Source: an uncultured bacterium | GTDB lineage: Bacteria; Vulcanimicrobiota; Xenobia; Xenobiales; Xenobiaceae | Direction: 5' to 3' | DNA length: 64,000 nucleotides | Assembly: GCA_934636825.1 (NCBI GenBank) | Contig: CAKUBG010000001.1 | Location: 256,080 to 320,079 of the forward strand | Shown here: in pieces, positions 2,750 to 58,640 of the stretch | Numbering within the stretch: the stretch's first letter is position 1 | Layout: each line of letters begins with the position of its first letter | Translations under genes and position numbers: made by a program | Notes under the pieces: generated by a model | The model's input: only the letters and a program-made list of their open reading frames with translations | Told to the model about the DNA's origin: nothing | The model's database searches: none

Positions 2750-2809
2750 ATTATCAAGCGCTTGTTTACTTTATCTAGAATTTATCTACTGATTTAACAT
2801 TTATTTAAC
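2750..2809 (-). promoter_or_regulatory. Conserved promoter module of paralog 1 (GTTAAATAAATGTTAA box, TAGATAA x2, TGATAAT)
   Basis: In the - sense: GTTAAATAAATGTTAAA (2794-2809), TAGATAA at 2782-2788 and 2771-2777, TGATAAT at 2750-2756. The same ordered elements occur upstream of paralogs 2-4. Confidence 0.5.
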
Positions 2810-2844
2810 TTTTAATTTTTTTTACTTCATCTTGAAATATTGTA

Positions 2845-2884
2845 CAAAAAAAGCCCCTCGACCAAAATCGAGAGGCTTCTCGTT
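2845..2884 (-). terminator. Rho-independent terminator downstream of paralog 2
   Basis: - sense: GCCTCTCGA-loop-TCGAGGGGC followed by U8, immediately after the stop at 2902. Confidence 0.6.
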
Positions 2885-2901
2885 AGTTAGCTATATATTT
2901 C

Positions 2902-5900
2902 TTACTTGTTGGGTTCAATGTAACCCATAACGCAAGCTTGGTTGCGATCGTAAGTTTTGACTCTTACGGAGTTGCTGCTGTTACCTTCAACTGTAGTAAC
3001 TACACCGGTACCGGCGTCGTAACTGACTACCAAACCGACGTGATCGGCGCCGCTACGAGTGTTGTCCCAGTCAAACATAATCATATCACCGGCCTTGGGA
3101 GCGTAATCGCCACCGCCCTGGCGCCAAGTGCCCTGACCTTTGGCCCAATTGACCAAAGTGGGAGTATAGTTGACGTTGTCGCAAGCGCTGAAGTCCATAA
3201 CGCCGTGCTTAGCCAAAATACCGGTAGCGAAAGCAGCGCACCAAGGTTGAGACTGACAATCGAGAGCCCAACTCTGGTTCCAATCCTTGGTAATGGCATT
3301 GATCTGAGAAGCGTTGCCACTTTCGGTCATACCTTCCATGGAAAGAGCCTCATCGAGAGCACCTTCGATACCCTTACTACCCTTAAGTTCGGCGCCTTTT
3401 AAGTTTTCCAACATGTAAGCACCAACCTGATCGTGATATATCTTGGTAACGCCTTCATGCCACTTCTGGTCGGTAGCCCAACCGGCTTTGTTTACGGCCG
3501 AAGCCTGATCGGCAATAGAAGCATCGGAAGAAGAACCACCTTTTTCACGTAAGTTGTGGAAAGTTCTAGCACCAACATTGATCTGGTTCTCTACACCGGA
3601 AAACTTAGGATTACGGGTTGAGTTGTTGGGATCGGAGTCATAAGCGCCTACGCCCATCCAACCGTTGATACCTACGCTACCGGAAGCGGTACCCCAACGG
3701 GTTTCTTGACCGGCAATGGAAAGCAGAACCAGAGGATCTACATCATTTTCTTTACCGGCTTTAACAAAGAGAGCACCAGTGCCAGCAGGAGCGGGAGAAC
3801 CTTTTTCAGCTAAGAAACCGTCGATAGCCTTAGCAACATCTTCGTCGGAGCACTTGGAAATATCGATATCACCAGCCGCGCTGCTTCTCTTAACAGAAGA
3901 TCCGGAGCTGACGCTACCAGCGCCGCCGGAACCACCAACGCCACTGACGCCGCCGCCTCCGCCACCATAGTTGCCACCGCCGCCGGAACCGGAACCACCG
4001 TTATTGGCAGCAGCTTGCTGAGCGGCCAGCTGTTGACCAAGCTGGTTTAATTGTTTTTGCAAATCTTCATTGCTAATACCGACAGCTTTTTCAAAATCGC
4101 TCAAATTGTCATTGGACTGAGCAGCGCTTTCAGCAGCTTTAGATTCATCAACTTTAGCTTCGTCAGCTTTGGCTTTGTCGGCAGCAGCAATTTCTTCATC
4201 GCTCATCACTTTGCCGTCGGCGCCAATACGTTTGCCTTCTTCATTGACGAGGTTGCCCTTATTGTCAATCAGCTGGCCATCGCCATTTACCAACTTGCCA
4301 TCTTCATTGAGAGTGCTGCCTTCAGGAAGTTTCTTGCCATCTTCACTGTAAAGAGTGCCGTTCTTGTCCACGAAAACGCCGTCAGGAAGCTTCTCAGGAT
4401 CAACTTTAGCGCTGTCGGTAGCACTATCTTTGGTACCTTCAGTACCGGCGGCTTTAGCATCTTCACCCTGACCGGCGGCATTTTTAGCATCGTCGGCAGT
4501 ATCTTTGGCGCTATCGGCGGCAGCCTTATCGGAAGCGTTGGCGGCTTCAACAGTGCTTACGCCGTCTTGAGCTTTTTCGGCCTTGCCGTCAATTTGACCA
4601 GCAGTATTTTCGGCTTTGGACACCTTCTGATCGGCGCTATTAACTTGACCGGCGGCATCTTCGGCCTTGGTATCAGCTTCAGAAGCAGCAGTTTCGGCTT
4701 GTTCAGCTTTGGTAGCGTCATCGGTAGCTTTAGTTTCGGCTTGTTCAGAAGCGTTGGCTGCTTCAGTAGCGGCAGTTTCAGCTTGTTCGGACTTGCCTTC
4801 AGCGGCGCTGAGCTGGCTTTCCAACTCAGAGGCTTTGCTTTCGGCAGCGTCGGCGGCACTGTGAGCGGCGTCAGCTTTGGCCTGAGCGGAATCTAAAGCG
4901 GACTGAGCTGAAGCAATAGCTTCTTCATCGGGCACTTGCTCGGTGCTTCCGTCTTCGTTTTCGACAGTCTTGGTAGCAGACTTGGCAGCTTCCAAAGCGG
5001 ACTGAGCCTGAGCAACTTCAGAATCGGCCTGAGTAGCTTCAGCAGCTTTATTAGTAGCTTCGGTACGAGCTTCGGTAGCTTGAGACTTAAGCTGTTCCAT
5101 TTCAGCTTTGGCTTTGTCGGCCTTGGACTTGGAGTCTTGAGCTTCAGAAGCAGCTTTGGTTGCATCGCTCTGAGAAGTTTGAGCGGCGGAATTGGCTTCG
5201 GTAGCGGCATTGCCGGCCTCGCTAGCGGCTTGCTGCGCAGCTTGAGATTGCTCGTTGGCAGAAGTAGCTTTGGCTTGAGCTTGTTCTACGTTGGAAGCGG
5301 CATTCTGCTGAGCGGACTGAGCGCTATTTACTTTGTCTTGCTGAGCAGCAGCTTTGGCAGCATTTTCTTGCTCAAGCTGGTTGCGAGTAGAATCAATATT
5401 GTCACTTAAATTGGAAATGCGATTTTGCAAAGAGTTCATATCGTCTTGAGAAGAACTCAATTGCTGATTGACTTGATTCAGCTCTTGGCTCAGTTGCTCT
5501 ACTTTTTCCTGGTCGCCATCAGCTTGAGCTTCGGCTAAATCTTCTACTAACTGGGCTTGCTTTTGCTCTAAAGCTTCGCGCTCTTGGGCTTTCTTCTCTT
5601 GCTCTTTCTTGAGCTCTTCCATCTCGGCTTCTAAAGTGCCCAAAGTTTCGGCGGTATTGGCTTCTTTGCCCTCTTGCTCGCCTTCATTGATCACTTTTTC
5701 TAATTCGCTCTGAGCCGCTTCCAAATCGGTATTGGCTTCATCTACGTCGGCGTTGGCTGCAGCGGCAGTTTTAGCTTGTTCGGCTGCTTCAGTTTGAGTT
5801 TTGGCTTGAGTAGCGGCAGTTTCGGCAGCAGTTGCATCTTTCGCTTTGGCATCTTCGTTGGCTACAGCAGCTTTAGCGTCAGCATTTTCGCCTTCTTCTG

Positions 5901-6189
5901 AAGACTTGACAGCTTTATCGCCAGCTTCTTCAGTTTTTTCACCAGCTTTGGTGGCTTCAGCGGCAGCAGCTTCAGCACTTTCCGCACCTTCAGCGGCAGC
6001 AGCTTCGTCGTCTAAAGAAGCGACATTGAGAGAGCCGAAAGCGTTAATGGCTTCAGAACCAGACAAAGAGATAGAGTCATCGGCCGCAAAACCGAACGCA
6101 TTATTGCTAGACGCAGCAGCAGAAGTGCTGGGCATATTGGTGGAAATACCGGATATTCCTAAAAAGCTTGAAATCTTATCTAACGACAT
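2902..6189 (-). CDS. Giant coiled-coil peptidoglycan hydrolase, paralog 2 (1095 aa; glucosaminidase-like + CHAP)
   Basis: Conserved N-terminal module 'MSLDKISSFLGISGISTNMPS...SLDDE', an Ala/Glu/Gln-rich coiled-coil of about 700 aa, then a GGSGSGGGGNYGGGGGG linker. C-terminus carries 'FVKAGKENDVDPLVLLSIAGQETRWG' and the CHAP motif 'WCAAFATGILAKHG...DHVGLVVSYD...EGNSSNSV'. RBS GGAGAG before the ATG. Confidence 0.8.
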   Translation of the reverse strand: MSLDKISSFLGISGISTNMPSTSAAASSNNAFGFAADDSISLSGSEAINAFGSLNVASLDDEAAAAEGAESAEAAAAEATKAGEKTEEAGDKAVKSSEEGENADAKAAVANEDAKAKDATAAETAATQAKTQTEAAEQAKTAAAANADVDEANTDLEAAQSELEKVINEGEQEGKEANTAETLGTLEAEMEELKKEQEKKAQEREALEQKQAQLVEDLAEAQADGDQEKVEQLSQELNQVNQQLSSSQDDMNSLQNRISNLSDNIDSTRNQLEQENAAKAAAQQDKVNSAQSAQQNAASNVEQAQAKATSANEQSQAAQQAASEAGNAATEANSAAQTSQSDATKAASEAQDSKSKADKAKAEMEQLKSQATEARTEATNKAAEATQADSEVAQAQSALEAAKSATKTVENEDGSTEQVPDEEAIASAQSALDSAQAKADAAHSAADAAESKASELESQLSAAEGKSEQAETAATEAANASEQAETKATDDATKAEQAETAASEADTKAEDAAGQVNSADQKVSKAENTAGQIDGKAEKAQDGVSTVEAANASDKAAADSAKDTADDAKNAAGQGEDAKAAGTEGTKDSATDSAKVDPEKLPDGVFVDKNGTLYSEDGKKLPEGSTLNEDGKLVNGDGQLIDNKGNLVNEEGKRIGADGKVMSDEEIAAADKAKADEAKVDESKAAESAAQSNDNLSDFEKAVGISNEDLQKQLNQLGQQLAAQQAAANNGGSGSGGGGNYGGGGGGVSGVGGSGGAGSVSSGSSVKRSSAAGDIDISKCSDEDVAKAIDGFLAEKGSPAPAGTGALFVKAGKENDVDPLVLLSIAGQETRWGTASGSVGINGWMGVGAYDSDPNNSTRNPKFSGVENQINVGARTFHNLREKGGSSSDASIADQASAVNKAGWATDQKWHEGVTKIYHDQVGAYMLENLKGAELKGSKGIEGALDEALSMEGMTESGNASQINAITKDWNQSWALDCQSQPWCAAFATGILAKHGVMDFSACDNVNYTPTLVNWAKGQGTWRQGGGDYAPKAGDMIMFDWDNTRSGADHVGLVVSYDAGTGVVTTVEGNSSNSVRVKTYDRNQACVMGYIEPNK

Positions 6190-6207
6190 TCAGTAATCTC
6201 TCCTAAT
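4893..6207. repeat. Direct repeat copy A (100% identical to 8416-9730); 5' half of paralog 2 plus 18 nt of leader
   Basis: Three six-frame ORFs have identical translations in both copies at a constant offset of 3523 (4893-5210 and 8416-8733; 4936-5409 and 8459-8932; 5846-6196 and 9369-9719). Identity decays to about 90% between 4450 and 4890. Sequence diverges 18 nt upstream of the ATG. Confidence 0.85.
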
Positions 6208-6265
6208 TCCTCATAAACGAAAAGAGGCGGCACACTGCTGCGCCTTTTCCACTCGTATTCTCTTC

Positions 6266-6329
6266 ATTATCAATTATGACCAAAAATTTATCTACAATTT
6301 AAAAACTGTTTTAACATTTATTTAACATT
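6266..6329 (-). promoter_or_regulatory. Conserved promoter module of paralog 2
   Basis: - sense: GTTAAATAAATGTTAAA (6311-6329), TAGATAA (6288-6294), 15 nt, TGATAAT (6266-6272). The leader has the hairpin AGGCG-N11-CGCCU followed by a U-run. Confidence 0.5.
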
Positions 6330-6375
6330 AAAAATGATTTAACTATTTTTTACTATTTTGTCATGCTGAATTGAG

Positions 6376-6430
6376 CAAAAAAAACTCTCCCCCTTTGGCA
6401 AGTCTTTTACTCGACCAACGGGGAGAGCTC
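6376..6430 (-). terminator. Probable terminator downstream of paralog 3
   Basis: CTCTCCCC (6386-6393) pairs with GGGGAGAG (6420-6427). A8 on the + strand gives a U-run on the - strand. The 26-nt loop is long for a terminator. Confidence 0.45.
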
Positions 6431-6502
6431 TCGCGCTGTATAGGTAGTCCGACTCAAAAATCTAATTTTCGTGAATCAGACTCACCACATCTATGTATAT
6501 TG

Positions 6503-9500
6503 TTAGTCACCGATAGAAGTGTAACCTAATACGCAAGCGTCATTGCGATTGTAGGTTTTTACTCTTACAGAATTGCTGCTATTGCCCTCAACCGTGGTAA
6601 TAGTACCGCTGTCAGAGTCGTATTTTACTACCAGACCAACGTGATTGGGGCTGGTACGGGAGCCATCCCAATCAAAGAAGATCATATCGCCCTTCTTAGG
6701 TGAATAATCACTGCTGGCATGATTCCAAGTGCCTTCACTCTGTGACCAATCCACCAAATAGTTGGTAGAATTGACGTTTTGGCAGCCAGAGAAATCTTCC
6801 ACACCATTTTTAGCCAAGATGCCGCTAGCAAAAGCAGCACACCAAGGCCATTCTTGACAATCGAGAGCCCAACTCTGGTTCCAATCCTTGGTAATGGCAT
6901 TGATCTGAGCAGTATTGCCACTTGCGGTCATGCCTTCCATAGAGAGAGCCTCGTCAATAGCGGCATCAATGCCTTTGTTGCCACTGGAGGAAGAAGTGCC
7001 GGAAGCAGCAGAGGCAGCCTTTATTTCCTCCATCTTAGCTTGTACATAAGGGGCAACTTGATTTTGGTAAATGCTAGTTACGCCATTATGCCAATTTTGG
7101 TCACTGGCCCATCCGGCTTTGTTGACAGCAGAAGTCTGAGCGGCAATAGAGTCGGAAGAAGAGGATCCACCCTTTTCACGCAAATTGTGGAAGGTTCTGG
7201 CACCGACGTTGATCTGTTTTTCCACACCAGAGAACTTAGGATTGCGAGTTGAGTTGTTGGGGTCGGAGTCGTAAGCACCTACGCCCATCCAGCCATCGAT
7301 ACCAACGCTACCAGCAGCGGTACCCCAACGGGTTTCCTGACCAGCGATAGATAATAAAATAAGCGGATCGACATCATTTTCTTTACCAGCCTTGACAAAC
7401 AGAGCGCCAGTACCTTCAGGAGCGGGAGAGCCTTTTTCAGCTAAGAAGCAATCAATTGCTTTAGCCATAGCTTGCTCATTTTCGTCGGTAAGCTCTACTT
7501 TGCTAATCGAGCCAGCTTTGCTAGCTGAAGAGGTGGAACCAGTGCTGCCAGTACCGCCTACGCTACCGGAGCCACCTACACCGCCTCCGCCGCCGTAGTT
7601 GCCGCCACCGCCGGAACCAGAGCCGGAACCACCATTATTGCCAGCAGCTTGCTGAGCAGCACCTTGGTTGGCAATCTGTTGGCCGAGTTGTTCAATTTGC
7701 TTTTGCAAATCTTCATTGCTGATACCGGTAGCTTTTTCAAAGCCGCTCTTCTCTTCAGCAGCTTGACCAGCGCCTTCTTTGGCTTCATCAGTCTTAGCTT
7801 CATCGGCTTTGGCTTTGTCGGCTTTAGCAATATCTTCATCGCTCATCACTTTGCCATTTTCGTCGACACGCTTACCTTCAGCATTGACCTGATTGCCCTC
7901 AGCGTCAATCATTTTGCCATTCTTGTCTATCATAACGCCATCGGCCAGCTTGTCGGTATCGACTTTAGCTTCGCCTTTAGCGTCTTCACCTTGACCGGCG
8001 GCATTTTTAGCATCGTCGGCGGTATCTTTGGCACTATCGGCGGCAGCCTTATCAGAAGCGTTGGCGGCTTCAACAGTGCTCACGCCGTCTTGAGCTTTTT
8101 CAGCTTTGTCGTCAATTTGACCGGCAGTATTTTCGGCTTTGGACACCTTCTGATCGGCGCTATTAACTTGACCAGCAGCATCTTCAGCTTTGGTATCGGC
8201 TTCGGAAGCGGCTGTTTCGGCCTGCTCGGCTTTGGTAGCGTCATCGGTAGCTTTAGTTTCGGCTTGTTCAGAAGCGTTGGCTGCTTCAGTAGCGGCAGTT
8301 TCGGCTTGTTCGGATTTACCTTCGGCGGCGCTGAGCTGGCTTTCCAACTCAGAGGCTTTGCTTTCGGCAGCGTCGGCAGCGCTGTGAGCGGCGTCAGCTT
8401 TGGCCTGGGCGGAATCTAAAGCGGACTGAGCTGAAGCAATAGCTTCTTCATCGGGCACTTGCTCGGTGCTTCCGTCTTCGTTTTCGACAGTCTTGGTAGC
8501 AGACTTGGCAGCTTCCAAAGCGGACTGAGCCTGAGCAACTTCAGAATCGGCCTGAGTAGCTTCAGCAGCTTTATTAGTAGCTTCGGTACGAGCTTCGGTA
8601 GCTTGAGACTTAAGCTGTTCCATTTCAGCTTTGGCTTTGTCGGCCTTGGACTTGGAGTCTTGAGCTTCAGAAGCAGCTTTGGTTGCATCGCTCTGAGAAG
8701 TTTGAGCGGCGGAATTGGCTTCGGTAGCGGCATTGCCGGCCTCGCTAGCGGCTTGCTGCGCAGCTTGAGATTGCTCGTTGGCAGAAGTAGCTTTGGCTTG
8801 AGCTTGTTCTACGTTGGAAGCGGCATTCTGCTGAGCGGACTGAGCGCTATTTACTTTGTCTTGCTGAGCAGCAGCTTTGGCAGCATTTTCTTGCTCAAGC
8901 TGGTTGCGAGTAGAATCAATATTGTCACTTAAATTGGAAATGCGATTTTGCAAAGAGTTCATATCGTCTTGAGAAGAACTCAATTGCTGATTGACTTGAT
9001 TCAGCTCTTGGCTCAGTTGCTCTACTTTTTCCTGGTCGCCATCAGCTTGAGCTTCGGCTAAATCTTCTACTAACTGGGCTTGCTTTTGCTCTAAAGCTTC
9101 GCGCTCTTGGGCTTTCTTCTCTTGCTCTTTCTTGAGCTCTTCCATCTCGGCTTCTAAAGTGCCCAAAGTTTCGGCGGTATTGGCTTCTTTGCCCTCTTGC
9201 TCGCCTTCATTGATCACTTTTTCTAATTCGCTCTGAGCCGCTTCCAAATCGGTATTGGCTTCATCTACGTCGGCGTTGGCTGCAGCGGCAGTTTTAGCTT
9301 GTTCGGCTGCTTCAGTTTGAGTTTTGGCTTGAGTAGCGGCAGTTTCGGCAGCAGTTGCATCTTTCGCTTTGGCATCTTCGTTGGCTACAGCAGCTTTAGC
9401 GTCAGCATTTTCGCCTTCTTCTGAAGACTTGACAGCTTTATCGCCAGCTTCTTCAGTTTTTTCACCAGCTTTGGTGGCTTCAGCGGCAGCAGCTTCAGCA

Positions 9501-9712
9501 CTTTCCGCACCTTCAGCGGCAGCAGCTTCGTCGTCTAAAGAAGCGACATTGAGAGAGCCGAAAGCGTTAATGGCTTCAGAACCAGACAAAGAGATAGAGT
9601 CATCGGCCGCAAAACCGAACGCATTATTGCTAGACGCAGCAGCAGAAGTGCTGGGCATATTGGTGGAAATACCGGATATTCCTAAAAAGCTTGAAATCTT
9701 ATCTAACGACAT
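6503..9712 (-). CDS. Giant coiled-coil peptidoglycan hydrolase, paralog 3 (1069 aa; glucosaminidase-like + CHAP)
   Basis: The N-terminal ~430 aa are identical to paralog 2. The C-terminal hydrolase region is about 70% identical: 'LILLSIAGQETRWG', CHAP 'WCAAFASGILAKNG...NHVGLVVKYD'. Confidence 0.8.
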   Translation of the reverse strand: MSLDKISSFLGISGISTNMPSTSAAASSNNAFGFAADDSISLSGSEAINAFGSLNVASLDDEAAAAEGAESAEAAAAEATKAGEKTEEAGDKAVKSSEEGENADAKAAVANEDAKAKDATAAETAATQAKTQTEAAEQAKTAAAANADVDEANTDLEAAQSELEKVINEGEQEGKEANTAETLGTLEAEMEELKKEQEKKAQEREALEQKQAQLVEDLAEAQADGDQEKVEQLSQELNQVNQQLSSSQDDMNSLQNRISNLSDNIDSTRNQLEQENAAKAAAQQDKVNSAQSAQQNAASNVEQAQAKATSANEQSQAAQQAASEAGNAATEANSAAQTSQSDATKAASEAQDSKSKADKAKAEMEQLKSQATEARTEATNKAAEATQADSEVAQAQSALEAAKSATKTVENEDGSTEQVPDEEAIASAQSALDSAQAKADAAHSAADAAESKASELESQLSAAEGKSEQAETAATEAANASEQAETKATDDATKAEQAETAASEADTKAEDAAGQVNSADQKVSKAENTAGQIDDKAEKAQDGVSTVEAANASDKAAADSAKDTADDAKNAAGQGEDAKGEAKVDTDKLADGVMIDKNGKMIDAEGNQVNAEGKRVDENGKVMSDEDIAKADKAKADEAKTDEAKEGAGQAAEEKSGFEKATGISNEDLQKQIEQLGQQIANQGAAQQAAGNNGGSGSGSGGGGNYGGGGGVGGSGSVGGTGSTGSTSSASKAGSISKVELTDENEQAMAKAIDCFLAEKGSPAPEGTGALFVKAGKENDVDPLILLSIAGQETRWGTAAGSVGIDGWMGVGAYDSDPNNSTRNPKFSGVEKQINVGARTFHNLREKGGSSSSDSIAAQTSAVNKAGWASDQNWHNGVTSIYQNQVAPYVQAKMEEIKAASAASGTSSSSGNKGIDAAIDEALSMEGMTASGNTAQINAITKDWNQSWALDCQEWPWCAAFASGILAKNGVEDFSGCQNVNSTNYLVDWSQSEGTWNHASSDYSPKKGDMIFFDWDGSRTSPNHVGLVVKYDSDSGTITTVEGNSSNSVRVKTYNRNDACVLGYTSIGD

Positions 9713-9730
9713 TCAGTAATCTCTCCTAAC
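8416..9730. repeat. Direct repeat copy B (100% identical to 4893-6207)
   Basis: See copy A. Confidence 0.85.
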
Positions 9731-9797
9731 CTTTCAAAGCAAAAAAAGATGACTGACGCACTGCGCTAAGCGACCTTTTTCCGCCTTTATTATTTCT

Positions 9798-9859
9798 TTT
9801 ATCAACCATTATTTCCGCTTAATCTAGTGTAAAAGTCACGTTAACATTTATTTAACATT
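9798..9859 (-). promoter_or_regulatory. Conserved promoter module of paralog 3
   Basis: - sense: GTTAAATAAATGTTAAC (9841-9859), TAGATTA (9820-9826), 15 nt, TGATAAA (9798-9804). Leader hairpin followed by U7. Confidence 0.5.
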
Positions 9860-9865
9860 GTATAT

Positions 9866-9905
9866 AAAAAAAATAAGCAGCCTTCCAAGCATGGAGGCTG
9901 CTTAT
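9866..9905 (-). terminator. Rho-independent terminator downstream of paralog 4
   Basis: AAGCAGCC(t)TCCA pairs with TGGAGGCTGCTT. A9 on the + strand gives a U-run on the - strand after the stop at 9942. Confidence 0.6.
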
Positions 9906-9941
9906 AAAGTGTTTATTAAATATCAGAGCTGCAGTTGTACT

Positions 9942-12794
9942 CTATTTGTTAGGAGAAATGTAACCCATTACACAAGCTTGGTTACGATCATAAGTTTTTA
10001 CTCTGACAGCTCCGGGAGAGCCGCTGTTACCTTCAACCGTAGTGACAACTCCAGTTGAGTTATCGTAACTAACTACAATACCTACATGATCAGCACCAGA
10101 TCGAGTGTTGTCCCAGTCGAACATAATCATATCACCGGACTGAGGTTCATAATCGCCTCCAGCTTGGCTCCAAGTGCCTTCGCCCTTAGACCACTCCACC
10201 AAAGTGGGAGTATAGTTCACATTGGAGCAATTGCTAAAGTCCATGACGCCATTTTTAGCCAAGATACCGGTAGCGAAGGCGGCGCACCAAGGTTGAGACT
10301 GGCAGTCTAAAGCCCAACTCTGGTTACAATCTTTGGTAATAGCGTTAATTTCGGCAGCATTAGAGTTCTCGGTCATGCCTTCCATAGACAAAGCTTCATT
10401 AAGAGCAGCATCTATGCCCTCACCGCCCTTGGTAGAAGCACCTTCCAAATGCTCGAGCATATAAGAGCTGACCTGGTTTTGATAGATGCTAGTAACGCCG
10501 TTATGCCAGTTTTGATCAGTAGCCCAACCGGCTTCATTAACGGCAGCGGTTTGATCAGCTACTGAAGCATCGGCAGAGGATCCACCCTTTTCACGTAAGT
10601 TGGCAAAAGTTTTGGCTCCAACTTGTATCTGATTTTTTACACCAGCAAACGTAGAATTGGTAGTAGCATTAGTGGGGTTGGAATCGTAGGCGCCTACGCC
10701 CATCCAACCGTTGATGCCGATACCGGTTTTGCCCCATTGCGTCTCTTGACCGGCAATAGAAAGCAAGATCAAAGGATCGACATTATATTCTTTACCAGCT
10801 TCAACGAAGAGTTTGCCCGTGCCTTCGGGGGCTTCGGAGCCTTGCTCACTCAAGAAGCCATCAATAGCGCTAGCTATATCTTCATCTGAACAATTAGACA
10901 GATCTAAATCTCCGGCGGCACTGCTTCTCTTCACTGACGATCCTGAGCTTACACTACCGGAACTTCCTGAACTACCTACGCTCCCGCTGCTACCAACGCC
11001 GCCGTAACTGCCGCTACCTCCGGAGCTTCCCGTGCTACCGCTGCCAGAAGACTGATTAGCCGCTTGAGCTGCGGCCAGTTGCTCACCCAAAGCTTCAATT
11101 TGCTTTTGTAAGTCTTCGTTAGTTATGCCGACAGCTTCTTCAAAGCCATTGGTCTCTTCAGCTTCATTGGCTTTACCGTCAACTTCAGAAGCCGTCTCTT
11201 CAGTTTGTTCAGCATTTTCCGTAGCGCTGTCAGCTTGGCCAGCAGCTTCTTCGGCTTTACTATCGGCTTCAGAAGCAGCAGTTTCAGCATTTTCAGCTTG
11301 AGCAGCGTCTTCGTCGGCTTGATTTTGAGCTTGTTCGGAATTGTCAGCATCTTGAGTAGCTTCAGCTTCAGCATTTTCGGAAGTACCCTCGGCAGCACTG
11401 ACCATATCTTCTAATTGAGAAGCCTTATCTTCAGCTTCGTCGGCAGCTGTGTGGGCAGCTTCAGCTTTAGCTTGAGCAGATTCCAAAGCGGATTGAGCCG
11501 AAGCTATAGCTTCATCATCTTGCACTTCGGTAGTATTGCCATCTTCGTCTTCAACAGTCTTGGTGGCAGATTGAGCCTCTTCTAAAGCAGATTGAGCTTC
11601 AGATACTTCAGAATCGGCCTGATCGGCTTCTTCGGCTTTACTATTAGCTTCGGTACGAGCTTGCTCAGCGGCTGCTTTCAGTTCCTCTAAAGTGCTCTTG
11701 GCTTCTTCGGCTTTAGACTGAGATTGCTGAGCTTGATCAGCAGCTTGGGTAGCTTCACTCTGAGAAGCTTGAGCAGCCGAACTGGCTTCAGTAGCAGTTT
11801 CACCAGCTTGGCTGGCTTGTTGTTGGGCGCTCTGAGAATTGGCATTGGCAGTTTCAGCTTTAGCCTGAGCCTGCTCTAAATTGGAAGAAGCATTTTGCTG
11901 AGCACTCTGAGCAGCCTCAACTTTATCTTGCTGATTCTGAGCTTTGGTAGCATTTTCTTGTTCAAGCTGGTTCTTAGTAGAATCTATAGTGTCGCTCAAA
12001 CGAGAAATATCATTTTGCATTGAGCTTAAAGAATCTTGAGTGTTGCTTAAATCTTGATTTACTTGATTCAGTTCTTGGCTGAGCTGCTCAACTTTTTCCT
12101 GATCTCCATCAGCCTGAGCTTCAGCCAGCTCTTCTACCAACTGAGCCTGTTTTTGCTCCAAAGCCTCACGCTCTTGAATTTTCTCTTCTTGCTCTTTTTT
12201 GAGCTCTTCCATTTCGGCTTCTAAACTGCTTAAAGTTTCAGCCGTAGTCTCTTCTTTGCCCTCACGATCGCCTTCAGCAATCACATTCTCCAACTCACGC
12301 TGGGCAGCGTCTAAATCAGTATCGGCTTCGTCAACCTCAGAATTGGCTTCAGTAGCCGCAGCAGCCTGTTCGGAAGCCTCAGTTTGAGCCGTAGTTTGAG
12401 AAGCTGCCGCTTCCGCAGCTTCAGCATTTTTACTATCAGCCTCTTCTACAGCTTCTTCAGAAGCTATTTGATTATTTTCATTCTCTTCGAGAGCATTGGT
12501 CTCCTCATTGGCAGCAGTTTCAGACGCTTCTTCACTGTCTTGAGTTTGTTCGGTGGTTTGAGCTTCTTCTGAAGCTTGAGCTTCACCATCAGTCTCTTCA
12601 GAAGCTTTATCTTCATCTAAAGAAGCCACACTGAGATTACCAAAAGAGCTCAATACTTCCGAACCGGACAGAGATATAGAATCTTCGGTAGTTAAACTAA
12701 AGCCCGAAGCAGAAGAACTCGTTCCGGAAAGAGAAGGCATATTGCCGGAAATACCAGAGATACCCAAAAAGCTGGAAATTTGATCTAAAGCCAT
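9942..12794 (-). CDS. Giant coiled-coil peptidoglycan hydrolase, paralog 4 (950 aa; glucosaminidase-like + CHAP)
   Basis: N-terminus 'MALDQISSFLGISGISGNMPS' is a diverged form of the paralog 2/3 module. Acidic Glu/Gln-rich coiled-coil. 'FVEAGKEYNVDPLILLSIAGQETQWG', CHAP 'WCAAFATGILAKNG...DHVGIVVSYD'. Confidence 0.8.
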   Translation of the reverse strand: MALDQISSFLGISGISGNMPSLSGTSSSASGFSLTTEDSISLSGSEVLSSFGNLSVASLDEDKASEETDGEAQASEEAQTTEQTQDSEEASETAANEETNALEENENNQIASEEAVEEADSKNAEAAEAAASQTTAQTEASEQAAAATEANSEVDEADTDLDAAQRELENVIAEGDREGKEETTAETLSSLEAEMEELKKEQEEKIQEREALEQKQAQLVEELAEAQADGDQEKVEQLSQELNQVNQDLSNTQDSLSSMQNDISRLSDTIDSTKNQLEQENATKAQNQQDKVEAAQSAQQNASSNLEQAQAKAETANANSQSAQQQASQAGETATEASSAAQASQSEATQAADQAQQSQSKAEEAKSTLEELKAAAEQARTEANSKAEEADQADSEVSEAQSALEEAQSATKTVEDEDGNTTEVQDDEAIASAQSALESAQAKAEAAHTAADEAEDKASQLEDMVSAAEGTSENAEAEATQDADNSEQAQNQADEDAAQAENAETAASEADSKAEEAAGQADSATENAEQTEETASEVDGKANEAEETNGFEEAVGITNEDLQKQIEALGEQLAAAQAANQSSGSGSTGSSGGSGSYGGVGSSGSVGSSGSSGSVSSGSSVKRSSAAGDLDLSNCSDEDIASAIDGFLSEQGSEAPEGTGKLFVEAGKEYNVDPLILLSIAGQETQWGKTGIGINGWMGVGAYDSNPTNATTNSTFAGVKNQIQVGAKTFANLREKGGSSADASVADQTAAVNEAGWATDQNWHNGVTSIYQNQVSSYMLEHLEGASTKGGEGIDAALNEALSMEGMTENSNAAEINAITKDCNQSWALDCQSQPWCAAFATGILAKNGVMDFSNCSNVNYTPTLVEWSKGEGTWSQAGGDYEPQSGDMIMFDWDNTRSGADHVGIVVSYDNSTGVVTTVEGNSGSPGAVRVKTYDRNQACVMGYISPNK

Positions 12795-12847
12795 AAGTTT
12801 CTCCTCAATTTTTAGGTCATACTTTCTTAATATACGACCTATACTTA

Positions 12848-12882
12848 CTGATAATTATCAGAGAAAACATCGGCATTATCTA
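12848..12882 (-). promoter_or_regulatory. Conserved promoter module of paralog 4, including the perfect palindrome CTGATAATTATCAG
   Basis: - sense: TAGATAA (12876-12882), 15 nt, TGATAAT (12854-12860). TGATAAT lies inside the 14-bp perfect palindrome at 12848-12861. The GTTAAATAAATGTTAA box is absent here. Confidence 0.45.
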
Positions 12883-13004
12883 GTAAAAAAAAGCTCGTAA
12901 AATTCGGCTTTTATTATAATTAAATATAAGAAAAATAAATAAGCAAAAAATGATAATAAATTAAAGGAAAGCTAAGGGAAGAGGAATTAGGACTAACAGC
13001 TTAT

Positions 13005-16566: not shown

Positions 16567-19500
16567 TCAGCGACGCTTTCCTTTGGTTCTGGCAGCTATT
16601 CTCTTAAGATATTTGGCCTTTTTCTCTAAAGAAGCACTATTATCTTTAACTTCTTCAACACTCTCGACCTCGACGATTTCACTGCCAACAACAATTTGCG
16701 GATCTTCATTTTTTGCTTCTGAAGCTTGCATCTTTTCTGCCCTGACAGTTTGCCAAGTATCGGCAGAAGCAACACAGAATGGAATAGCATGAGCTGTGGC
16801 ATAAGACTCGGCAGCAGAACCCTGAGGAGCGTAAATAGTAAGCTTCTGAGAGACATCAAAGAGTTTTTCTTCCAAATGGGTTAAACTCTCGGGAATAAAA
16901 ATGCTTTCTAAGTTGCGACAACCGAAGAAAGCTTTACTACCTACCTCTTTGAGGCCTTCGGGAAGCTCTAAGCTTTGTAAAGAACGACAATCAGCAAAAA
17001 CAGCTTCTCCAAGCTTTATTAAATTCGCAGGCAATTTCACATTGCGAAGATGAATGCAAGCACAAAAAACTCGATTGCCTAATTCTTTGACACTATCAGG
17101 AAGGCTAATTTCAGTAAGTCGCTCACAACTGCGCCAGGCACCGTCTTTGATAGTCTGTAAACCATTTGCGGCCATATTAACAATGCGTAAGCGACTGCAA
17201 CTCCTGAAAGCATCTAAACCAATGGTCTTCAAAGACGGCCCTAAGTTTATCTCCTCGACAATATCGTTGCCCTTCATGAAATTGTCACTGAGAGCTTCAA
17301 CAAAGCGCCCTTTCAATTCGTTGGGGACGTCAACTTTGGATACAGACAAACCAGGCACTTTAGCCAAAACGATTCCTTCGCTGGCAGTCTCAGAAGCTGC
17401 ACTTGGAGTAGAAACTTTTTTCAGCATTTCCAATTTTTGAGGACTCAATAAGTCCGATACCGGGGCACTTAAAGAAGTGTGCTGCTGGACTTTAACTCTG
17501 TTGTCTTCTTTAAGGTGAGCAGCCTGAACATCTTTCTTTTCGGTTGGGTTGGAAAGCGAATGACTTTCTTCACTATTACTCGCTCTTATTCCGCTTAGCG
17601 CCAGAGCCCCCTTATAGTAACGCTCCAATTCCAAATTGATTTTAGTTGTCAGCGAAGGAGAACTGTGATTCAACGCTCCAACAGCGGCAACAACCGATAA
17701 TTTAGAAGGAACTTCTATAGAAGAATTGCGATCTGAAGCGGACAATTGAGAAAGAATATGCGTAGGCCGTTTTTCACTTAAAGCCAATGGACCCTCAGCA
17801 AGCTTTGTTTTGAGCGAAGTTACAGCAACCGCAGATTGCTTTGCAACGGCATCAGTTGCGTTGGCGCCTGGAGAGAGTACCTCTGCAATTTTCTGTGTAG
17901 GAAGCTCTTGTTCATCGCTTACAAGAGTTTTTTCAGCAATCTTTTTATGTAAACGACAAGCTTTATTTTGCTCTTTTATACCAAACTGATGGAACCAGCC
18001 TATTTTTTCCATACGGTCCAGAACATCGCAAGCGGCCCTCAGAATGTCTTCAGGCTTAATTTCTTTGGGCTGTTCATTGTTAGCGTCAGTAGTGTCTTTG
18101 ACAAGAATATCTTTAATAGGCGATATGTCTTCTATAGAAGAGAACATGCGCGAAGAATTAAGTATTCTTTTGGCACTGGAAGAGGTAACTCTGTACCAAG
18201 CTTTTATATAACCGGCTAAGTCAACCAGCTCATAAGCCCCTTGGAGAATAGAGAATACTTTGGCTTGGGATAAACCGGCACAATTGTCCGGATTTAAAAT
18301 ACTACGTTCAGAAGCTATTACTTTATCAGCTTCTGACTTAATTAAGCGCACCACAGGCCTGGGGATACTATGTCCAGCTTTGACACTAAAGGCTTGAGTG
18401 CATCTGGAAAGACTGTCGGAAACTCCCAAACCGCAAAGCATGTAGTCTCCACCTTTGGTGATCAGTTCATTGGCTACGCAACCGTCTTCAAAATTAATCA
18501 ACTCATACTTTATGCCAAATTGCATAGCGTATTCATGGGCGGCCGAGTCTTTTTGGCAAACAATAATAATTTGCTCTGTATCTTTAGCCTTTTCCTCAGT
18601 TTCAGAAGCGCCGTCCAAAGTACAACCACTGCCAAAAATAGGGCTGAATTTACACATTTCCGGGCCGAATTGTTTTACAGAAGGAGGTATAACTACGCGA
18701 CGTAGAGACTGGCAGCCGAAAAATACTCCCACGCCAAGCGAACGCGTGCCGGAAGGGATAACGATATTGACTAAGCTTGAGCAATAAGCAAAGACATAAT
18801 CTCCCAGCGAAACCAAATAAGAAGGCAAATGTATACTCTCTATACCGGAACACCCTAAAAAGGCCCAATTATCTATAAATTGCAAGGAATCGGGGAAGTC
18901 TAAACTTTTTAAAGAATTGCAGCCCCAGAAAGCACTTTTGTCGATAAAACTTAAACGACTGGACCAGCGCACTTTTTGCAATAAATTGCACCCCCAAAAA
19001 GCGGCTTTGCCTATAGAAACCAAATTGTCGGAGCAATCGAGAAAAACTACATTGCGGTTGCAAAACGCTCTGTTGCCTATATGATTTATGCCTTCTAAAT
19101 GAACAGCAACTGGAACATTGGAACGAGCGTCGGCTTTTTTCTCAAAAGCTTTGTGACGAATAACAATCCAATCGCCCTTTGAAGTAATGGCTTTATAAGA
19201 AGAAGGATTTACCCTCAAACCGAACACTTGACGACGGACAGTTTTATTGCCGGGTATTACAACTTCTGCTTCTTCCTCTTCAGGAGTAAGATCTTCGTCG
19301 GAAGTATCTTCGGAGGTGTCATTATCTTCAAGTTCCTCATCTTCTTCGACACCATCTTCTTTTATTTCGTGAAGCAAAGGATCATAAAACTTTATGCGAT
19401 GCAAACGAGCATAATTTTCAGCGCTGCTACTTGGCGTACCATAAATGACCAGCTCGTCGGCTTCGCTGCTAAAGATAGTCCCTTCTTTGCCAAACACAAT

Positions 19501-21096
19501 TAAGGAAGCAGGCAAATCGACCCGACGTAAAGCGTTACATCCTTTAAAAGCTTCAGAGCCAAGCCGACGTAATTCTTGGCCACAGTTTACTTCCAAGAGT
19601 CCGGAGCAATTCAGAAAAGCCCGCTCACGAATAATTTGCAACTTTTCAGGCAATTCAAGCTTAGTCAAAGAACGACAATTGGCAAAAGCACAAACTCCTA
19701 TTTCCGGAGTATCACTGTGGAAGCGAACAGAGGTAAGCTGAGCACAATCAGAGCAAAACCCCTCGGGAATGGCAATAGGAACAGAAGAAAGATCTATTTC
19801 ATTCAGCTTACGGCAGTTTTCGAAACAACGTTCGCCCAAAGATACAACTTCTCCGGGAATTTCCACAGCATACAAATCGCTGCACCCTTTAAAGCAAGCT
19901 TTGTAAATTTCGCGTAAGCAAAAAGGTAAATAAACCTCGTGCAATCCGCTGCAACCGCTAAATACTTCTTGCTCTAAAACGGATAATTTGCAACGGCTTA
20001 AATCAATTTTTTTCAAATTGACACAATCGCAAAAAGCTCGCACTCCCATGGCGGAGAGAGAAGCGGGAAAAGAAAATTCTTCCAGAGCGGAACATCCACT
20101 AAAAGCACCGCAGCCGACTTCTTGCAAACCAGAACTCAATTTTACGGAACGCAATTTAGAACAATTGCTAAAGATACCGCCTTCCAGAGTAACAAGATTT
20201 TCCGGCAACTCGGCTGTTTCTAAAGAAGAACATTCTGCGAAGGCAAATTCGGCCACCGATTTAAGTTCTGAAGATATATCTACCGATTTTAAGCGAGTGC
20301 AACCACGAAAAGCGGAATAGCCAATTTTTGCCAAAGAAGTGGGCAAGTTGAGAGTATCTATCCCTGTGCAAGCTCGGAAAGCTTCTTCTTTTATATCTTG
20401 CAAAGCCTCCGGCCATTTTATTTCGCGCAAACTTTCGCACTCAAAAAAGCACAGCGGTGGAATTTCTGTCAGAGCAGAGCCTGAAGCGAAAATGGCTTTT
20501 TTGAGCAAAGTGCATTCGCTGAAGGCCGATTTGCCCAATCGTTCCAAGGCAGCTCCAAAAGATATGCTTTTTAAAGAAACGCAACCTTTAAAAGCTTCAT
20601 CACCAATACTTTTCAAAGTGCTTGGCAAAATTACGCTACCAAGACTGCTACAATTAAGAAAAGCCCCCTTGCCTATGGTGACAATGCCTTCCGGTATAAC
20701 TACTTTGGCCAAGTCGGCAAAATCGGCAAAAGCTCCCTCGGCCACAGAAGTGACTCTTACGCCCGAAGGAGAAACAGTCGGCAGCTCTATGCTGCGCTGT
20801 TTTTTAGTTCCTTTCCATTTTATTAAAATGCTCTCATCATAAGCATCAAACTCGAAGTTGTCCGGTAAATTGGAACCGTTATTTAAATGAGGGGTCTTTT
20901 CTTTTGTATTTTCATTTTGTTTATGATTGTTTTTTTCTTGTTTTTTATCATTTTCTACAGAGGAAGCTTCTTTTTCTGCTCTTATCATCGCATCATTAAA
21001 TGTTTTTACTAACGAATAAGGGCCAGGAAAGCCCCTCCTAGCTGAACCACGACAGCGGTTCATATATAACCAGCCTTTGTTCTTGAAAAAATCCAC
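16567..21096 (-). CDS. BspA-type leucine-rich-repeat giant protein (1509 aa)
   Basis: Many ~23-aa repeats of the form 'L..I...AF..C..L..I.LP..L..IG..AF'. Acidic linker. No clear signal peptide. Confidence 0.6.
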   Translation of the reverse strand: MDFFKNKGWLYMNRCRGSARRGFPGPYSLVKTFNDAMIRAEKEASSVENDKKQEKNNHKQNENTKEKTPHLNNGSNLPDNFEFDAYDESILIKWKGTKKQRSIELPTVSPSGVRVTSVAEGAFADFADLAKVVIPEGIVTIGKGAFLNCSSLGSVILPSTLKSIGDEAFKGCVSLKSISFGAALERLGKSAFSECTLLKKAIFASGSALTEIPPLCFFECESLREIKWPEALQDIKEEAFRACTGIDTLNLPTSLAKIGYSAFRGCTRLKSVDISSELKSVAEFAFAECSSLETAELPENLVTLEGGIFSNCSKLRSVKLSSGLQEVGCGAFSGCSALEEFSFPASLSAMGVRAFCDCVNLKKIDLSRCKLSVLEQEVFSGCSGLHEVYLPFCLREIYKACFKGCSDLYAVEIPGEVVSLGERCFENCRKLNEIDLSSVPIAIPEGFCSDCAQLTSVRFHSDTPEIGVCAFANCRSLTKLELPEKLQIIRERAFLNCSGLLEVNCGQELRRLGSEAFKGCNALRRVDLPASLIVFGKEGTIFSSEADELVIYGTPSSSAENYARLHRIKFYDPLLHEIKEDGVEEDEELEDNDTSEDTSDEDLTPEEEEAEVVIPGNKTVRRQVFGLRVNPSSYKAITSKGDWIVIRHKAFEKKADARSNVPVAVHLEGINHIGNRAFCNRNVVFLDCSDNLVSIGKAAFWGCNLLQKVRWSSRLSFIDKSAFWGCNSLKSLDFPDSLQFIDNWAFLGCSGIESIHLPSYLVSLGDYVFAYCSSLVNIVIPSGTRSLGVGVFFGCQSLRRVVIPPSVKQFGPEMCKFSPIFGSGCTLDGASETEEKAKDTEQIIIVCQKDSAAHEYAMQFGIKYELINFEDGCVANELITKGGDYMLCGLGVSDSLSRCTQAFSVKAGHSIPRPVVRLIKSEADKVIASERSILNPDNCAGLSQAKVFSILQGAYELVDLAGYIKAWYRVTSSSAKRILNSSRMFSSIEDISPIKDILVKDTTDANNEQPKEIKPEDILRAACDVLDRMEKIGWFHQFGIKEQNKACRLHKKIAEKTLVSDEQELPTQKIAEVLSPGANATDAVAKQSAVAVTSLKTKLAEGPLALSEKRPTHILSQLSASDRNSSIEVPSKLSVVAAVGALNHSSPSLTTKINLELERYYKGALALSGIRASNSEESHSLSNPTEKKDVQAAHLKEDNRVKVQQHTSLSAPVSDLLSPQKLEMLKKVSTPSAASETASEGIVLAKVPGLSVSKVDVPNELKGRFVEALSDNFMKGNDIVEEINLGPSLKTIGLDAFRSCSRLRIVNMAANGLQTIKDGAWRSCERLTEISLPDSVKELGNRVFCACIHLRNVKLPANLIKLGEAVFADCRSLQSLELPEGLKEVGSKAFFGCRNLESIFIPESLTHLEEKLFDVSQKLTIYAPQGSAAESYATAHAIPFCVASADTWQTVRAEKMQASEAKNEDPQIVVGSEIVEVESVEEVKDNSASLEKKAKYLKRIAARTKGKRR

Positions 21097-43535: not shown

Positions 43536-45017
43536 TTAGAAGCGTTTACCGGCACCTATAACCGGAGCACTGTTATGTTTATCAGTAACATCACGTACAC
43601 CGCCGTAAATATACCAGTCGGCAGGCAAAACAACTTTGCCCAAAACGTCAACTTTTATATCACGCGGATCATATACATCCAACGACGTTTCCAAACGCTT
43701 ATCAAAGAACCAAGCATCGGCGCCCACACCAACTTTGGAGCGTACAATACCACCGCGCAGCCGCCAATTATCCCAGGCTTTGCCAGCTTGCAAATTGAGC
43801 AAATTCTCATTACCTATGGAATCGAGACCGACTCTGAAAGTAAGCGGCCCACCGTAAGGGAAGAGCCAAGCATTGGCGTTGGTAGAAAGTTGGCCATTGC
43901 TCATGTTGAGCTCTTCAGCTACATCACCTTGGAAGAGAGGACGATCTCCTTTGCTTAAGCCAGCGGGGAATTTATCAACGGCACCCTCCACCTTTTGAGT
44001 TACGCGCTTAACCGATCCAGAAGCTTCGCGGACGTTGTGTACAGTTTCGCGCAAATCTTCTTGAACTTGAGGATCGCCGGTTACTGTGCGAATATCTCCA
44101 GCAATTCCGGCCACTTCTTCACTGACTTTGCGGATATTAGCTGCAATAGCCAAAATATCGCCGCGCATTTGCGGATCGTCGGCAACATTTTCTAACGCTG
44201 AAGCGGTATTTTTCAAGCTGGAAGACATCTGACGCAAGTTCATAACAATAGCATTCAAGTTGGAAGCATTGCCCTGAACCAAATTATTTACTGTAGAAGT
44301 GGTATTTCTAACATTGTTGCCTATTTCAGCAGCATCGGAACGAAGCTGGGCTACGGTAGCAGAAGCGTTATCTATCACGTTTTCCATCGTACCGGCAATA
44401 TTAGCCATGCGCACACGCAATTCGCTCATTAACTGACGAGCGTCACCGCTGGCATCTTTTAAATTGGTAGAAATATCTCTGATATTGTTAACGGTAACTT
44501 TTACGTCTTTCTTAAAGGTGTCGTCACCGACTATTTCATTTAAAGCAGCGATGGAGCCGCGCAATTCTTCCATCAGTTGACTGCCCTCTTGAGCCAATTG
44601 TTCAAGAGAAATAGGAGTAGTTCCGATAACTACTTCATCAGCCGCAATAGGCTCAACTCCTTCAGGCACGGCGCCAGGCTTAATATCTAACCACTTATCA
44701 CCCAAAATGTTGGAAGCTATAGTGTAGACAAAATAATCGGAGCTAAAAAGTTTGGCTCCATCGCGAGTAACTACGATAGTTACATCAACGCGATTTTGAG
44801 AGTTAAGCTCGATATCAGAAACGTAGCCGATGCGTACACCGGAAAGATGTACCGACGAGCGGACTTGCAAGCCTTGAACATCATCAAACATGACGTGATA
44901 TTTTTCACCCACATCAGGCCCGACTTTACCAATTTGCAAGAAGACAAGGCCAAGCAGAATAAAGGCCACTACTGTCATCATGCCTACTCTTGCCGCAGGA
45001 CTAAGCCCCATTTTCAC
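43536..45017 (-). CDS. MCE/MlaD-family substrate-binding protein (493 aa)
   Basis: N-terminal TM, an MCE domain ('GLQVRSSVHLSGVRIGYV...VDVTIVV') and a long helical C-terminus. Confidence 0.75.
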   Translation of the reverse strand: MKMGLSPAARVGMMTVVAFILLGLVFLQIGKVGPDVGEKYHVMFDDVQGLQVRSSVHLSGVRIGYVSDIELNSQNRVDVTIVVTRDGAKLFSSDYFVYTIASNILGDKWLDIKPGAVPEGVEPIAADEVVIGTTPISLEQLAQEGSQLMEELRGSIAALNEIVGDDTFKKDVKVTVNNIRDISTNLKDASGDARQLMSELRVRMANIAGTMENVIDNASATVAQLRSDAAEIGNNVRNTTSTVNNLVQGNASNLNAIVMNLRQMSSSLKNTASALENVADDPQMRGDILAIAANIRKVSEEVAGIAGDIRTVTGDPQVQEDLRETVHNVREASGSVKRVTQKVEGAVDKFPAGLSKGDRPLFQGDVAEELNMSNGQLSTNANAWLFPYGGPLTFRVGLDSIGNENLLNLQAGKAWDNWRLRGGIVRSKVGVGADAWFFDKRLETSLDVYDPRDIKVDVLGKVVLPADWYIYGGVRDVTDKHNSAPVIGAGKRF

Positions 45018-45053
45018 CCTCCATCGTTCTAGTTAAACGAAATAGTTCCATTA

Positions 45054-45905: not shown

Positions 45906-45930
45906 ACTAATTTTTCTTTCCCGATAATTG

Positions 45931-58047: not shown

Positions 58048-58084
58048 AAAAAATAAGACTGATAAGTCTAAAATATCGGAAAAA

Positions 58085-58129
58085 AACGTAGTTTCAATGT
58101 CTTAAAAAGACAAAACTACGTTTTTTTTA
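58085..58129 (+). terminator. Rho-independent terminator of glgX
   Basis: 10-bp stem AACGTAGTTT/AAACTACGTT followed by T8. Confidence 0.75.
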
Positions 58130-58214
58130 TCGATGTGATCTCTTGCCCACAACAGGAAGGCTGCGATGTGATTATTCCTCTACCTTTAGTGCAATAAGTT
58201 AGGCAATCCAGTAG

Positions 58215-58252
58215 CAAAAATCTCCGGCAGCAATTATTGCCGGAGATTTTTC
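58215..58252. terminator. Second bidirectional terminator-like hairpin
   Basis: 10-bp stem ATCTCCGGCA/TGCCGGAGAT, flanked by A5 and T5. Confidence 0.55.
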
Positions 58253-58624: not shown

Positions 58625-58640
58625 TACCCCATATATTTTA

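Follow-up and report, generated by a model that had tools for sequence, protein, structure and literature searches.

The OmpR-family regulator WalR has as its consensus site a direct repeat of two TGTWAH hexamers separated by 5 nt (PMC9210968, PMC4168254), and cell-wall hydrolases belong to the WalR regulon of every organism in which it has been studied (PMC7299342). The MtrA motif is a degenerate nGTnAC direct repeat with an 11-bp period, and the MtrA regulon includes ripA and rpfA-E (PMC6265350). The consensus of PhoB is very similar to that of WalR (PMC4168254). The present study deals with the upstream regions of four tandem genes, paralogs 1 to 4 (P1-P4), which code for predicted peptidoglycan hydrolases and lie on the minus strand of a 64,000-nt stretch of DNA from an uncultured bacterium (contig CAKUBG010000001.1 of assembly GCA_934636825.1, positions 256,080 to 320,079; the whole stretch is called the window). 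All four regions contain a common promoter-like element, and upstream of P1-P3 it is preceded by a direct repeat resembling a WalR site. Direct repeats with a 10-11-bp period are a hallmark of OmpR/PhoB-type winged-helix dimers. It is probable, as judged from the sequence, that P1-P3 are transcribed from activator-dependent sigma-70-type promoters (TAGATA-16/17-GATAAT) driven by an OmpR/PhoB-family regulator with WalR- or MtrA-like specificity.

Results

A preliminary description of this DNA had noted a near-identical 17-mer upstream of P1-P3. The 17-mer GTTAAATAAATGTTAAM was indeed found three times on the minus strand of the window, at 2793-2809, 6310-6326 and 9840-9856, against 0.07 matches expected, and always at these genes. 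Its distance to the promoter-proximal TAGATAA is 13-15 nt and not about 10 bp as had been stated. The 17-mer is a direct repeat, nGTWAA-N5-TGTTAM, with a period of 11 bp. Upstream of P2 (6311-6327, minus strand) and P3 (9841-9857, minus strand) the box reads TGTTAA-ATAAA-TGTTAA, an exact match to TGTWAH-N5-TGTWAH, which is expected 0.4 times window-wide; the P2 box also fits the S. mutans refinement TGTWAHA-N4-TGTWAHA. The box of P1 (2794-2810, minus strand) is AGTTAA-ATAAA-TGTTAA, with one mismatch to the same pattern. The comparison was extended to loci of the same lineage (310 kb in total together with the window; loci labelled L0xx). All 18 exact matches to TGTWAH-N5-TGTWAH in this DNA lie upstream of a paralog and in sense orientation.

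The P1-, P2- and P3-type genes provide 21 distinct upstream regions, in which the order of elements is constant. The box, nGTWAH-N5-TGTWAH with 0-1 mismatch, comes first and is followed by T[AT]GAT[AT]N, by N14/15, by TGATAA[ATG] and by a leader of 53-86 nt. The box carries 2.0 bits of information at G2, T3, A5, A6, T12, T14, T15 and A16, its flanks are mostly below 1 bit, and the N5 spacing between the half-sites is invariant. Orthologs vary between T and A at position 4 and between A and C at position 6, precisely as the WalR consensus permits. In the most distant members, L007 and L008, in which the catalytic domains are 69-71% identical, the spacer has become ACTTG and TTTTT, respectively, and the second half-site of L008 is TGTTAC, while the half-sites and the exact N5 are kept. 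Measured from its start, the box is 31-34 or 43-44 nt upstream of the -35-like element, and intermediate distances do not occur. Since these two distance classes are one helical turn apart, the box appears to be kept on the same helical face as the promoter. The 11-bp direct repeat and the fixed helical face relative to the promoter are both general properties of OmpR/PhoB operators.

Further half-sites were observed in some regions. In P2-type promoters a further AGTTAAA half-site stands 17 nt upstream of the box (6338-6344 in the window, minus strand), and L006 has a second GTTAAA-N5-GTTAAA pair upstream (about 4720-4745); these may represent secondary regulator sites. In L008, the most GC-rich relative, a gene of the MSLDKISS type (at 11142) follows a P1-like gene and lacks both the box and the TAGATAA/TGATAA pattern; co-transcription or a different mode of regulation is possible.

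The promoter-like element is common to all four paralogs. A spacing of 15 nt between the two heptamers had been given for each of them. When the four sites were read directly, the spacing was correct for P2 (6266-6294), for P3, where the heptamers are TAGATTA and TGATAAA (9798-9826), and for P4 (12854-12882), whereas P1 has TAGATAA-N14-TGATAAT (2750-2777; all on the minus strand) and a second TAGATAA at 2782-2788, 11 bp upstream of the proximal copy. On the gene-sense (minus) strand of the 64-kb window TAGATWA-N15-TGATAAW has three matches against 0.01 expected. From the end of TGATAAT to the ATG there are 67, 76, 85 and 59 nt in P1, P2, P3 and P4, so P4 lies outside the range of 68-86 nt reported before. 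In terms of hexamers the element is TAGATA-16-GATAAT in P1 and TAGATA-17-GATAAT in P2, and P1, P2 and P4 agree with the sigma-70 consensus (TTGACA/TATAAT) at 9/12 positions; TAGATT-17-GATAAA of P3 is a weaker match. The orthologs from Ca. Bruticola have TTGATA-17-GATAAA, which is nearer to the sigma-70 form. The idea of a shared promoter-like architecture, TAGATA-16/17-GATAAT, is upheld, also in about ten related genomes. The proposed extended -10 is a different matter: no TGn precedes GATAAT at the P1, P2 and P4 sites listed, and in all four paralogs the TG of TGATAAT overlaps the -10 hexamer rather than preceding it by one base.

The combined pattern T[AT]GAT-N16/17-TGATAA occurs at 42 sites upstream of paralogs in the 310 kb and at only two sites elsewhere, both in the same coding sequence in two loci. 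It lies upstream of no other gene in the window, and both heptamers are almost invariant across 27 distinct upstream regions. TGATAAT alone is not enriched (13 copies against 8.1 expected), and no clear genome-wide promoter consensus emerged among 29 upstream regions read. One further copy of TGATAAT (12951-12957, plus strand) lies 48 nt before an unrelated divergent His_Phos gene (start 13005, plus strand) and is probably the -10 of that gene; it falls within a block, TTATTATCAT (minus strand), with partial conservation in P4-type orthologs.

It should be noted that these genes are paralogs and their common motifs could be relics of duplication, so random sequence would be the wrong null; neutral decay after duplication was chosen instead. 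Across paralogs the spacer between the heptamers is identical at 1-6/14 positions and the stretch after the -10 at 6-15/30; at this base composition an identity of 0.29 is expected by chance. The same comparisons gave 16-17/17 for the box and 6-7/7 for each heptamer. As the neutral spacers are at random identity while the motifs are intact, the neutral positions are saturated and the motifs are held in place by selection. The same architecture was found in about ten related gut metagenome-assembled genomes (MAGs) of the Vulcanimicrobiota/Eremiobacterota, class Ca. Xenobia, and every related MAG and metagenome contig contains an array of 2-4 such genes. Orthologs exist for each paralog type, which suggests that the array predates these species.

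P4 differs from the other paralogs. The absence of the box had been taken as a sign of different wiring, and it extends to all six P4-type lineages (6/6), where the best candidates have 2-3 mismatches at scattered positions. As described before, TGATAAT of P4 is embedded in a palindrome, CTGATAATTATCAG, located at 12848-12861 and overlapping the -10. Its 12-bp core TGATAATTATCA (12849-12860) is conserved in all P4-type orthologs, and the palindrome is conserved in 11 loci. A second P4-specific conserved block, CCGAATTTTA (12898-12907, minus strand), is situated about 23 nt upstream of TAGATAA and occupies the place of the second half-site of the box in P1-P3. The six P4-type lineages share TGATAATTATCA over the -10, CCGAATTTTA and a covarying leader hairpin. 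In L010 (9945-10267) and L026 (117-1070) hardly any sequence separates a P4-type promoter from the region for the catalytic C-terminus of a hydrolase; this is likely an assembly collapse across paralogous repeats and not a real short gene.

Predicted folds place the start of a stem-loop about 10-20 nt after the -10 in every leader. The hairpin followed by a U-run that had been noticed in the leaders of P2 and P3 is present, and the leaders of P1 and P4 also have hairpins, without a U-run. The stem-loop of P2 (6217-6256, minus strand) has the core GGCGCA/UGUGCC followed by CCUCUUUUCGUUU, and a comparison of four orthologs gives three compensatory pairs in the P2-type stem. The hairpin of P3 (9736-9788, minus strand) is flanked by an A-run and a U7 run, and P3-type leaders have a hairpin and U7-8 in the same place with different sequences. 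The leader of P1 (2705-2737, minus strand) has two adjacent hairpins (z = -2.1), and in P4 (12814-12840, minus strand; z = -3.5) the position of the hairpin is conserved while its sequence covaries in orthologs. The thermodynamic z-scores of the leaders are modest, from -1.1 to -3.5, with -1.1 and -1.8 for the P2 and P3 hairpins. The U-run of P2 and P3 is able to pair inside a longer stem or with the Shine-Dalgarno (SD) sequence; the pyrimidine run is complementary to the SD AGGAGAG, and one fold of P3 sequesters the SD. No leader has a match in Rfam at the gathering threshold or at E <= 1.

Terminator-like hairpins with a T-run follow each gene on the minus strand: after P4 (9866-9903) upstream of the P3 box, after P3 (6377-6430) upstream of the P2 box, after P2 (2846-2881) just upstream of the P1 box, and after P1 (220-259) at the end of the array. 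Because such a hairpin follows each gene, each of the four appears to form its own transcription unit. The order of a unit is the terminator of the preceding gene, operator, promoter, structured leader, Shine-Dalgarno sequence and ATG.

The four genes are P4 (9942-12794, 950 aa), which is the first of the array, P3 (6503-9712, 1069 aa), P2 (2902-6189, 1095 aa) and P1 (289-2682, 797 aa), all on the minus strand. Their products of 797-1095 aa have as N-terminal part a long Ala/Glu/Gln-rich coiled coil and a C-terminal catalytic region of about 340 aa that is 71-81% identical among the four paralogs. P1 has a GH73 glucosaminidase domain and a CHAP-like C-terminus and is matched by endolysin families among the PHROG profiles; P2 and P3 are coiled-coil proteins with CHAP, and P4 has GH73 and CHAP. 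The GH73 and/or CHAP domains found by Pfam in all four (4/4) and the endolysin relationship in PHROGs are the grounds on which the products are predicted to be peptidoglycan hydrolases. When the sequences were read directly, no N-terminal signal peptide was found in any of the four, an upstream extension of the open reading frame (ORF) is impossible for each of them, and they have no transmembrane segment despite a probably diderm host. The conserved N-terminus MSLDKISSFLGISGIS is without a Pfam family match, and no export signal or FlgM-like domain was found there by Pfam even at E <= 10.

The nearest genomes are gut MAGs labelled UBP9/UBA4705, Ca. Bruticola and Ca. Eremiobacteraeota, which assigns the lineage to the phylum Vulcanimicrobiota/Eremiobacterota, class Ca. 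Xenobia, on sequence similarity. The window contains a TamB/DUF748 protein of 2334 aa (21214-28218, minus strand) and an MlaD-MlaF-MlaE cluster (43536-46767, minus strand), which are hallmarks of outer-membrane lipid transport, here in a phylum of the kingdom Bacillati. The sole cultured member of the phylum is diderm and lacks flagella (PMC9758169). Together, TamB, MlaDEF and the diderm cultured relative indicate that the host is probably diderm. A BspA-type leucine-rich-repeat protein of 1509 aa (16567-21096, minus strand) is encoded about 4 kb from the array, beyond the divergent genes. At 58000-64000 there is an origin-proximal gene set with gidB and parB, where GC falls to 0.34-0.38, and this end may be close to oriC. 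Just past the right edge of the window (L034-L036) follow mnmG and a truncated 403-aa ORF, possibly mnmE, and then the contig ends; no regulator gene was found between the edge and the contig end.

Discussion

The upstream regions of this array suggest a simple mode of regulation. Each hydrolase gene would be transcribed from a sigma-70-type promoter with a poor -35 (TAGATA), a spacer of 16-17 nt and a good -10 (GATAAT). At P1-P3 a head-to-tail dimer of an OmpR/PhoB-family winged-helix response regulator could bind nGTWAA-N5-TGTTAM, starting about three helical turns upstream of the -35, or four in some relatives, and recruit RNA polymerase from the same face of the helix. The output of hydrolases would thereby follow a cell-envelope signal. 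P4 would have lost or never had the box; its 12-bp palindrome over the -10 would most simply be the operator of a dimeric repressor, and CCGAATTTTA could serve as an upstream block of its own. All four mRNAs would begin with a leader hairpin, and the pyrimidine/U-run in P2 and P3 could act as a transcription attenuator, as a stabiliser of the 5' end or as a mask over the Shine-Dalgarno sequence. The box is read as an OmpR/PhoB-type operator because of the 11-bp direct repeat, the match to the WalR consensus and the hydrolase targets. Where transcription starts, which factor binds, and that it activates rather than represses are inferences here, the last one from the kept phasing of the box and its place upstream of a weak -35. 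The earlier suggestion that the box points to a dedicated DNA-binding factor for P1-P3 holds in about ten related genomes.

Several observations weigh against an activator-dependent sigma-70-type promoter under an OmpR/PhoB-family regulator. A scan with the sigma-70 consensus alone is at chance level (14 sites against 10.4 expected). Both TAGATAA and TGATAA are invariant beyond what is usual for sigma-70 hexamers, and a dedicated sigma factor or a GATAA-binding protein could be responsible for this. The regions also share ancestry, so that the independent observations come to about 6-8 lineages and not 21. No response-regulator gene was detected by tblastn with WalR in the window and 33 loci (nothing below E = 0.2), and Pfam/NCBIfam scans of the larger ORFs of the window gave no response regulator, Fur or CRP-family protein. 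Moreover, WalRK has been described as a system of Firmicutes (PMC9210968), and the present host is a probably diderm member of the Vulcanimicrobiota. The literature on Ca. Bruticola, Xenobia and UBP9 yielded nothing on regulation.

The heptamers could instead be the -35 (TAGATAA) and -10 (TGATAAT) of a dedicated alternative sigma factor, either of the sigma-28/SigD type, which drives autolysin genes in Bacillus, or specific to the lineage. Their near-invariance over the 27 distinct upstream regions would then reflect sigma specificity, and the upstream box could remain the site of a separate regulator. The restriction of T[AT]GAT-N16/17-TGATAA to these genes, among the upstream regions of the 310 kb, is in keeping with this, and the GH73 domain is common to FlgJ and LytD-type enzymes. 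The sigma-28 consensus is TAAA-N15-GCCGATAA with a conserved CGA core, and the geometry TAGA-N15/16-nnTGATAA comes near to it. However, the core is TGA in every copy (TGATAA always, CGATAA never), and TAAA is not conserved, P3 having TAGATTA and the relatives of P4 TAGATAC; a sigma-28 (FliA/SigD) promoter was rejected on these two elements in spite of the fitting geometry. In addition, the sole cultured member of the phylum has no flagella (PMC9758169), Ca. Bruticola departs toward sigma-70, and TGATAAT also stands before the unrelated divergent gene at 13005. An alternative sigma factor is thus considered unlikely. A purely structural role of the 17-mer, as an AT-rich UP element, as phased A-tract curvature or as a nucleoid-protein site boosting a weak promoter, would suit the AT-richness of the region and the A-tracts found in P2 at 11-bp intervals between the box and the -10 (TGTTAAATAAA / TGTTAAAACAG / TTTTTAAATTG / TAGATAAATTT). 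The box lies at roughly -69 to -53, which overlaps the region where UP elements usually lie. What makes such a role quite unlikely is the conservation of the G/T positions 2-3 and 13-14, the highest in the box at 1.7-2.0 bits. The A/T-rich spacer, in contrast, can be exchanged, as L007 shows, and neither a UP element nor a bend would fix G residues. The box can also stand a full turn further upstream, as in the 43-44-nt class.

The symmetry of the box has to be considered as well, since all three window copies (3/3) contain TTAA-N7-TTAA and the P3 copy, GTTAA-N7-TTAAC, has palindromic ends. The box could accordingly be written TTAA-N7-TTAA(C), as a CtrA-type site or as an inverted repeat, GTTAA-N7-TTAAC, for a symmetric dimer. 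The CtrA box is TTAA-N7-TTAAC, and CtrA is alphaproteobacterial. In 11 of the 21 distinct box-bearing regions the first half-site is TGTAAA or AGTAAA, which breaks TTAA and keeps TGTWAH, and no symmetric counterpart exists for the TGT conserved ahead of the second TTAA; such a reading is very unlikely, and the CtrA box was discarded as a candidate. Regulation of P4 by iron through a Fur box at the -10, as implied when the palindrome was called Fur-box-like, seems remote. The palindrome does contain both Fur heptamers (TGATAAT and ATTATCA), its overlap with the -10 is of the kind seen at repressor sites, and it is conserved in the 11 loci. Its heptamers overlap, however, in a 6-0-6 and not a 7-1-7 arrangement, and TGATAAT is simply the -10 common to the four paralogs. 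The best alignment to TGATAATNATTATCA is 12/15, which is chance level (four such matches in the window against 3.6 expected). The 7-1-7 Fur box TGATAATnATTATCA was thus rejected, the palindrome being no better than three random window sites, and the 19-bp Fur box GATAATGATAATCATTATC has no match at up to 3 mismatches. The spacing better suits a CRP/FNR-type site, TTGAT-N4-ATCAA. In the window the palindrome agrees with it at 8/10 positions, itself at chance level as one of 56 such matches against 41.7 expected; agreement is 9/10 in most relatives and 10/10 in L004 and L005, so that an FNR-type reading is only a lead. It is hardly credible, finally, that the similarity is a mere relic of tandem duplication or gene conversion devoid of regulatory meaning. 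The genes are tandem paralogs, and P2 and P3 are identical in the ribosome-binding region and the 5' coding sequence, but the sequence between the motifs is at random identity (1-6/14; 3-9/13) with the motifs intact, and the motifs persist in the orthologs with 69-71% identical catalytic domains.

The most likely mechanism, an activator-dependent promoter of this kind, is conventional, and what is new is the lineage. The interpretation first given to this DNA was broadly correct, but two of its labels, the extended -10 and the Fur box, were not. It is conceivable, though doubtful, that a WalRK/MtrAB-like circuit for balancing hydrolases exists beyond the Firmicutes and Actinobacteria, namely in a diderm lineage of gut Vulcanimicrobiota, where it would control an expanded array of giant coiled-coil hydrolases without signal peptides, with P4 rewired to a palindrome-binding regulator. 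If so, the pairing of an OmpR-family regulator with peptidoglycan hydrolases, represented by WalR in Firmicutes and MtrA in Actinobacteria, would extend to a third, diderm branch of the Bacillati. An uncultured gut phylum of essentially no known genetics would thereby gain a concrete regulatory motif with critical bases and a phasing rule. The motif could be used to predict the remaining regulon in MAGs and to pick the cognate regulator.

Comparison with known systems

The palindrome of P4 resembles the operator of a repressor in overlapping the -10. With the Fur box it has in common the heptamer TGATAAT and its complement, and it differs in the 6-0-6 spacing as against 7-1-7. The TGAT-N4-ATCA core of FNR-type sites is present as well, but the match to the FNR-type site is 8/10 in the window, at chance level, and perfect in two relatives only. 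The CtrA box is like the window copies of the P1-P3 box in having TTAA-N7-TTAA(C), and the TGTAAA orthologs, which break the first TTAA, set the two apart.

The pho boxes of PhoB/PhoP have TGTnA-type half-sites in an 11-bp direct repeat, as found here, and on the reverse strand TTAACA-N5-TTAACA resembles the PhoP boxes of Bacillus. However, pho boxes normally replace the -35, whereas the present box is 31-44 nt upstream of a separate -35-like element and in some relatives one turn further off, and its targets are not phosphate genes. MtrA sites of Actinobacteria have the 11-bp direct repeat and peptidoglycan hydrolase targets in common with this array, and the host also belongs to the Bacillati; on the other hand, the half-sites end in AA and not in AC, MtrA motifs are richer in GC, and no mtrAB genes were identified.

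From the WalR (YycF/VicR) sites of Firmicutes (yocH, lytE, cwlO, pcsB/gbpB) the array differs in its probably diderm host from the Vulcanimicrobiota, in that no walRK genes were found in the window and the fetched loci, in a first half-site that tolerates A at position 1, and in having four tandem targets, one of them without the box. The regulator is described here as WalR-like and not as WalR. The likeness lies in the arrangement TGTWAH-N5-TGTWAH, which is exact in P2 and P3, in a position upstream of a sigma-A-type promoter, and in the nature of the targets, which are cell-wall hydrolases, among them enzymes such as CwlO that combine a coiled coil with CHAP or NlpC/P60.

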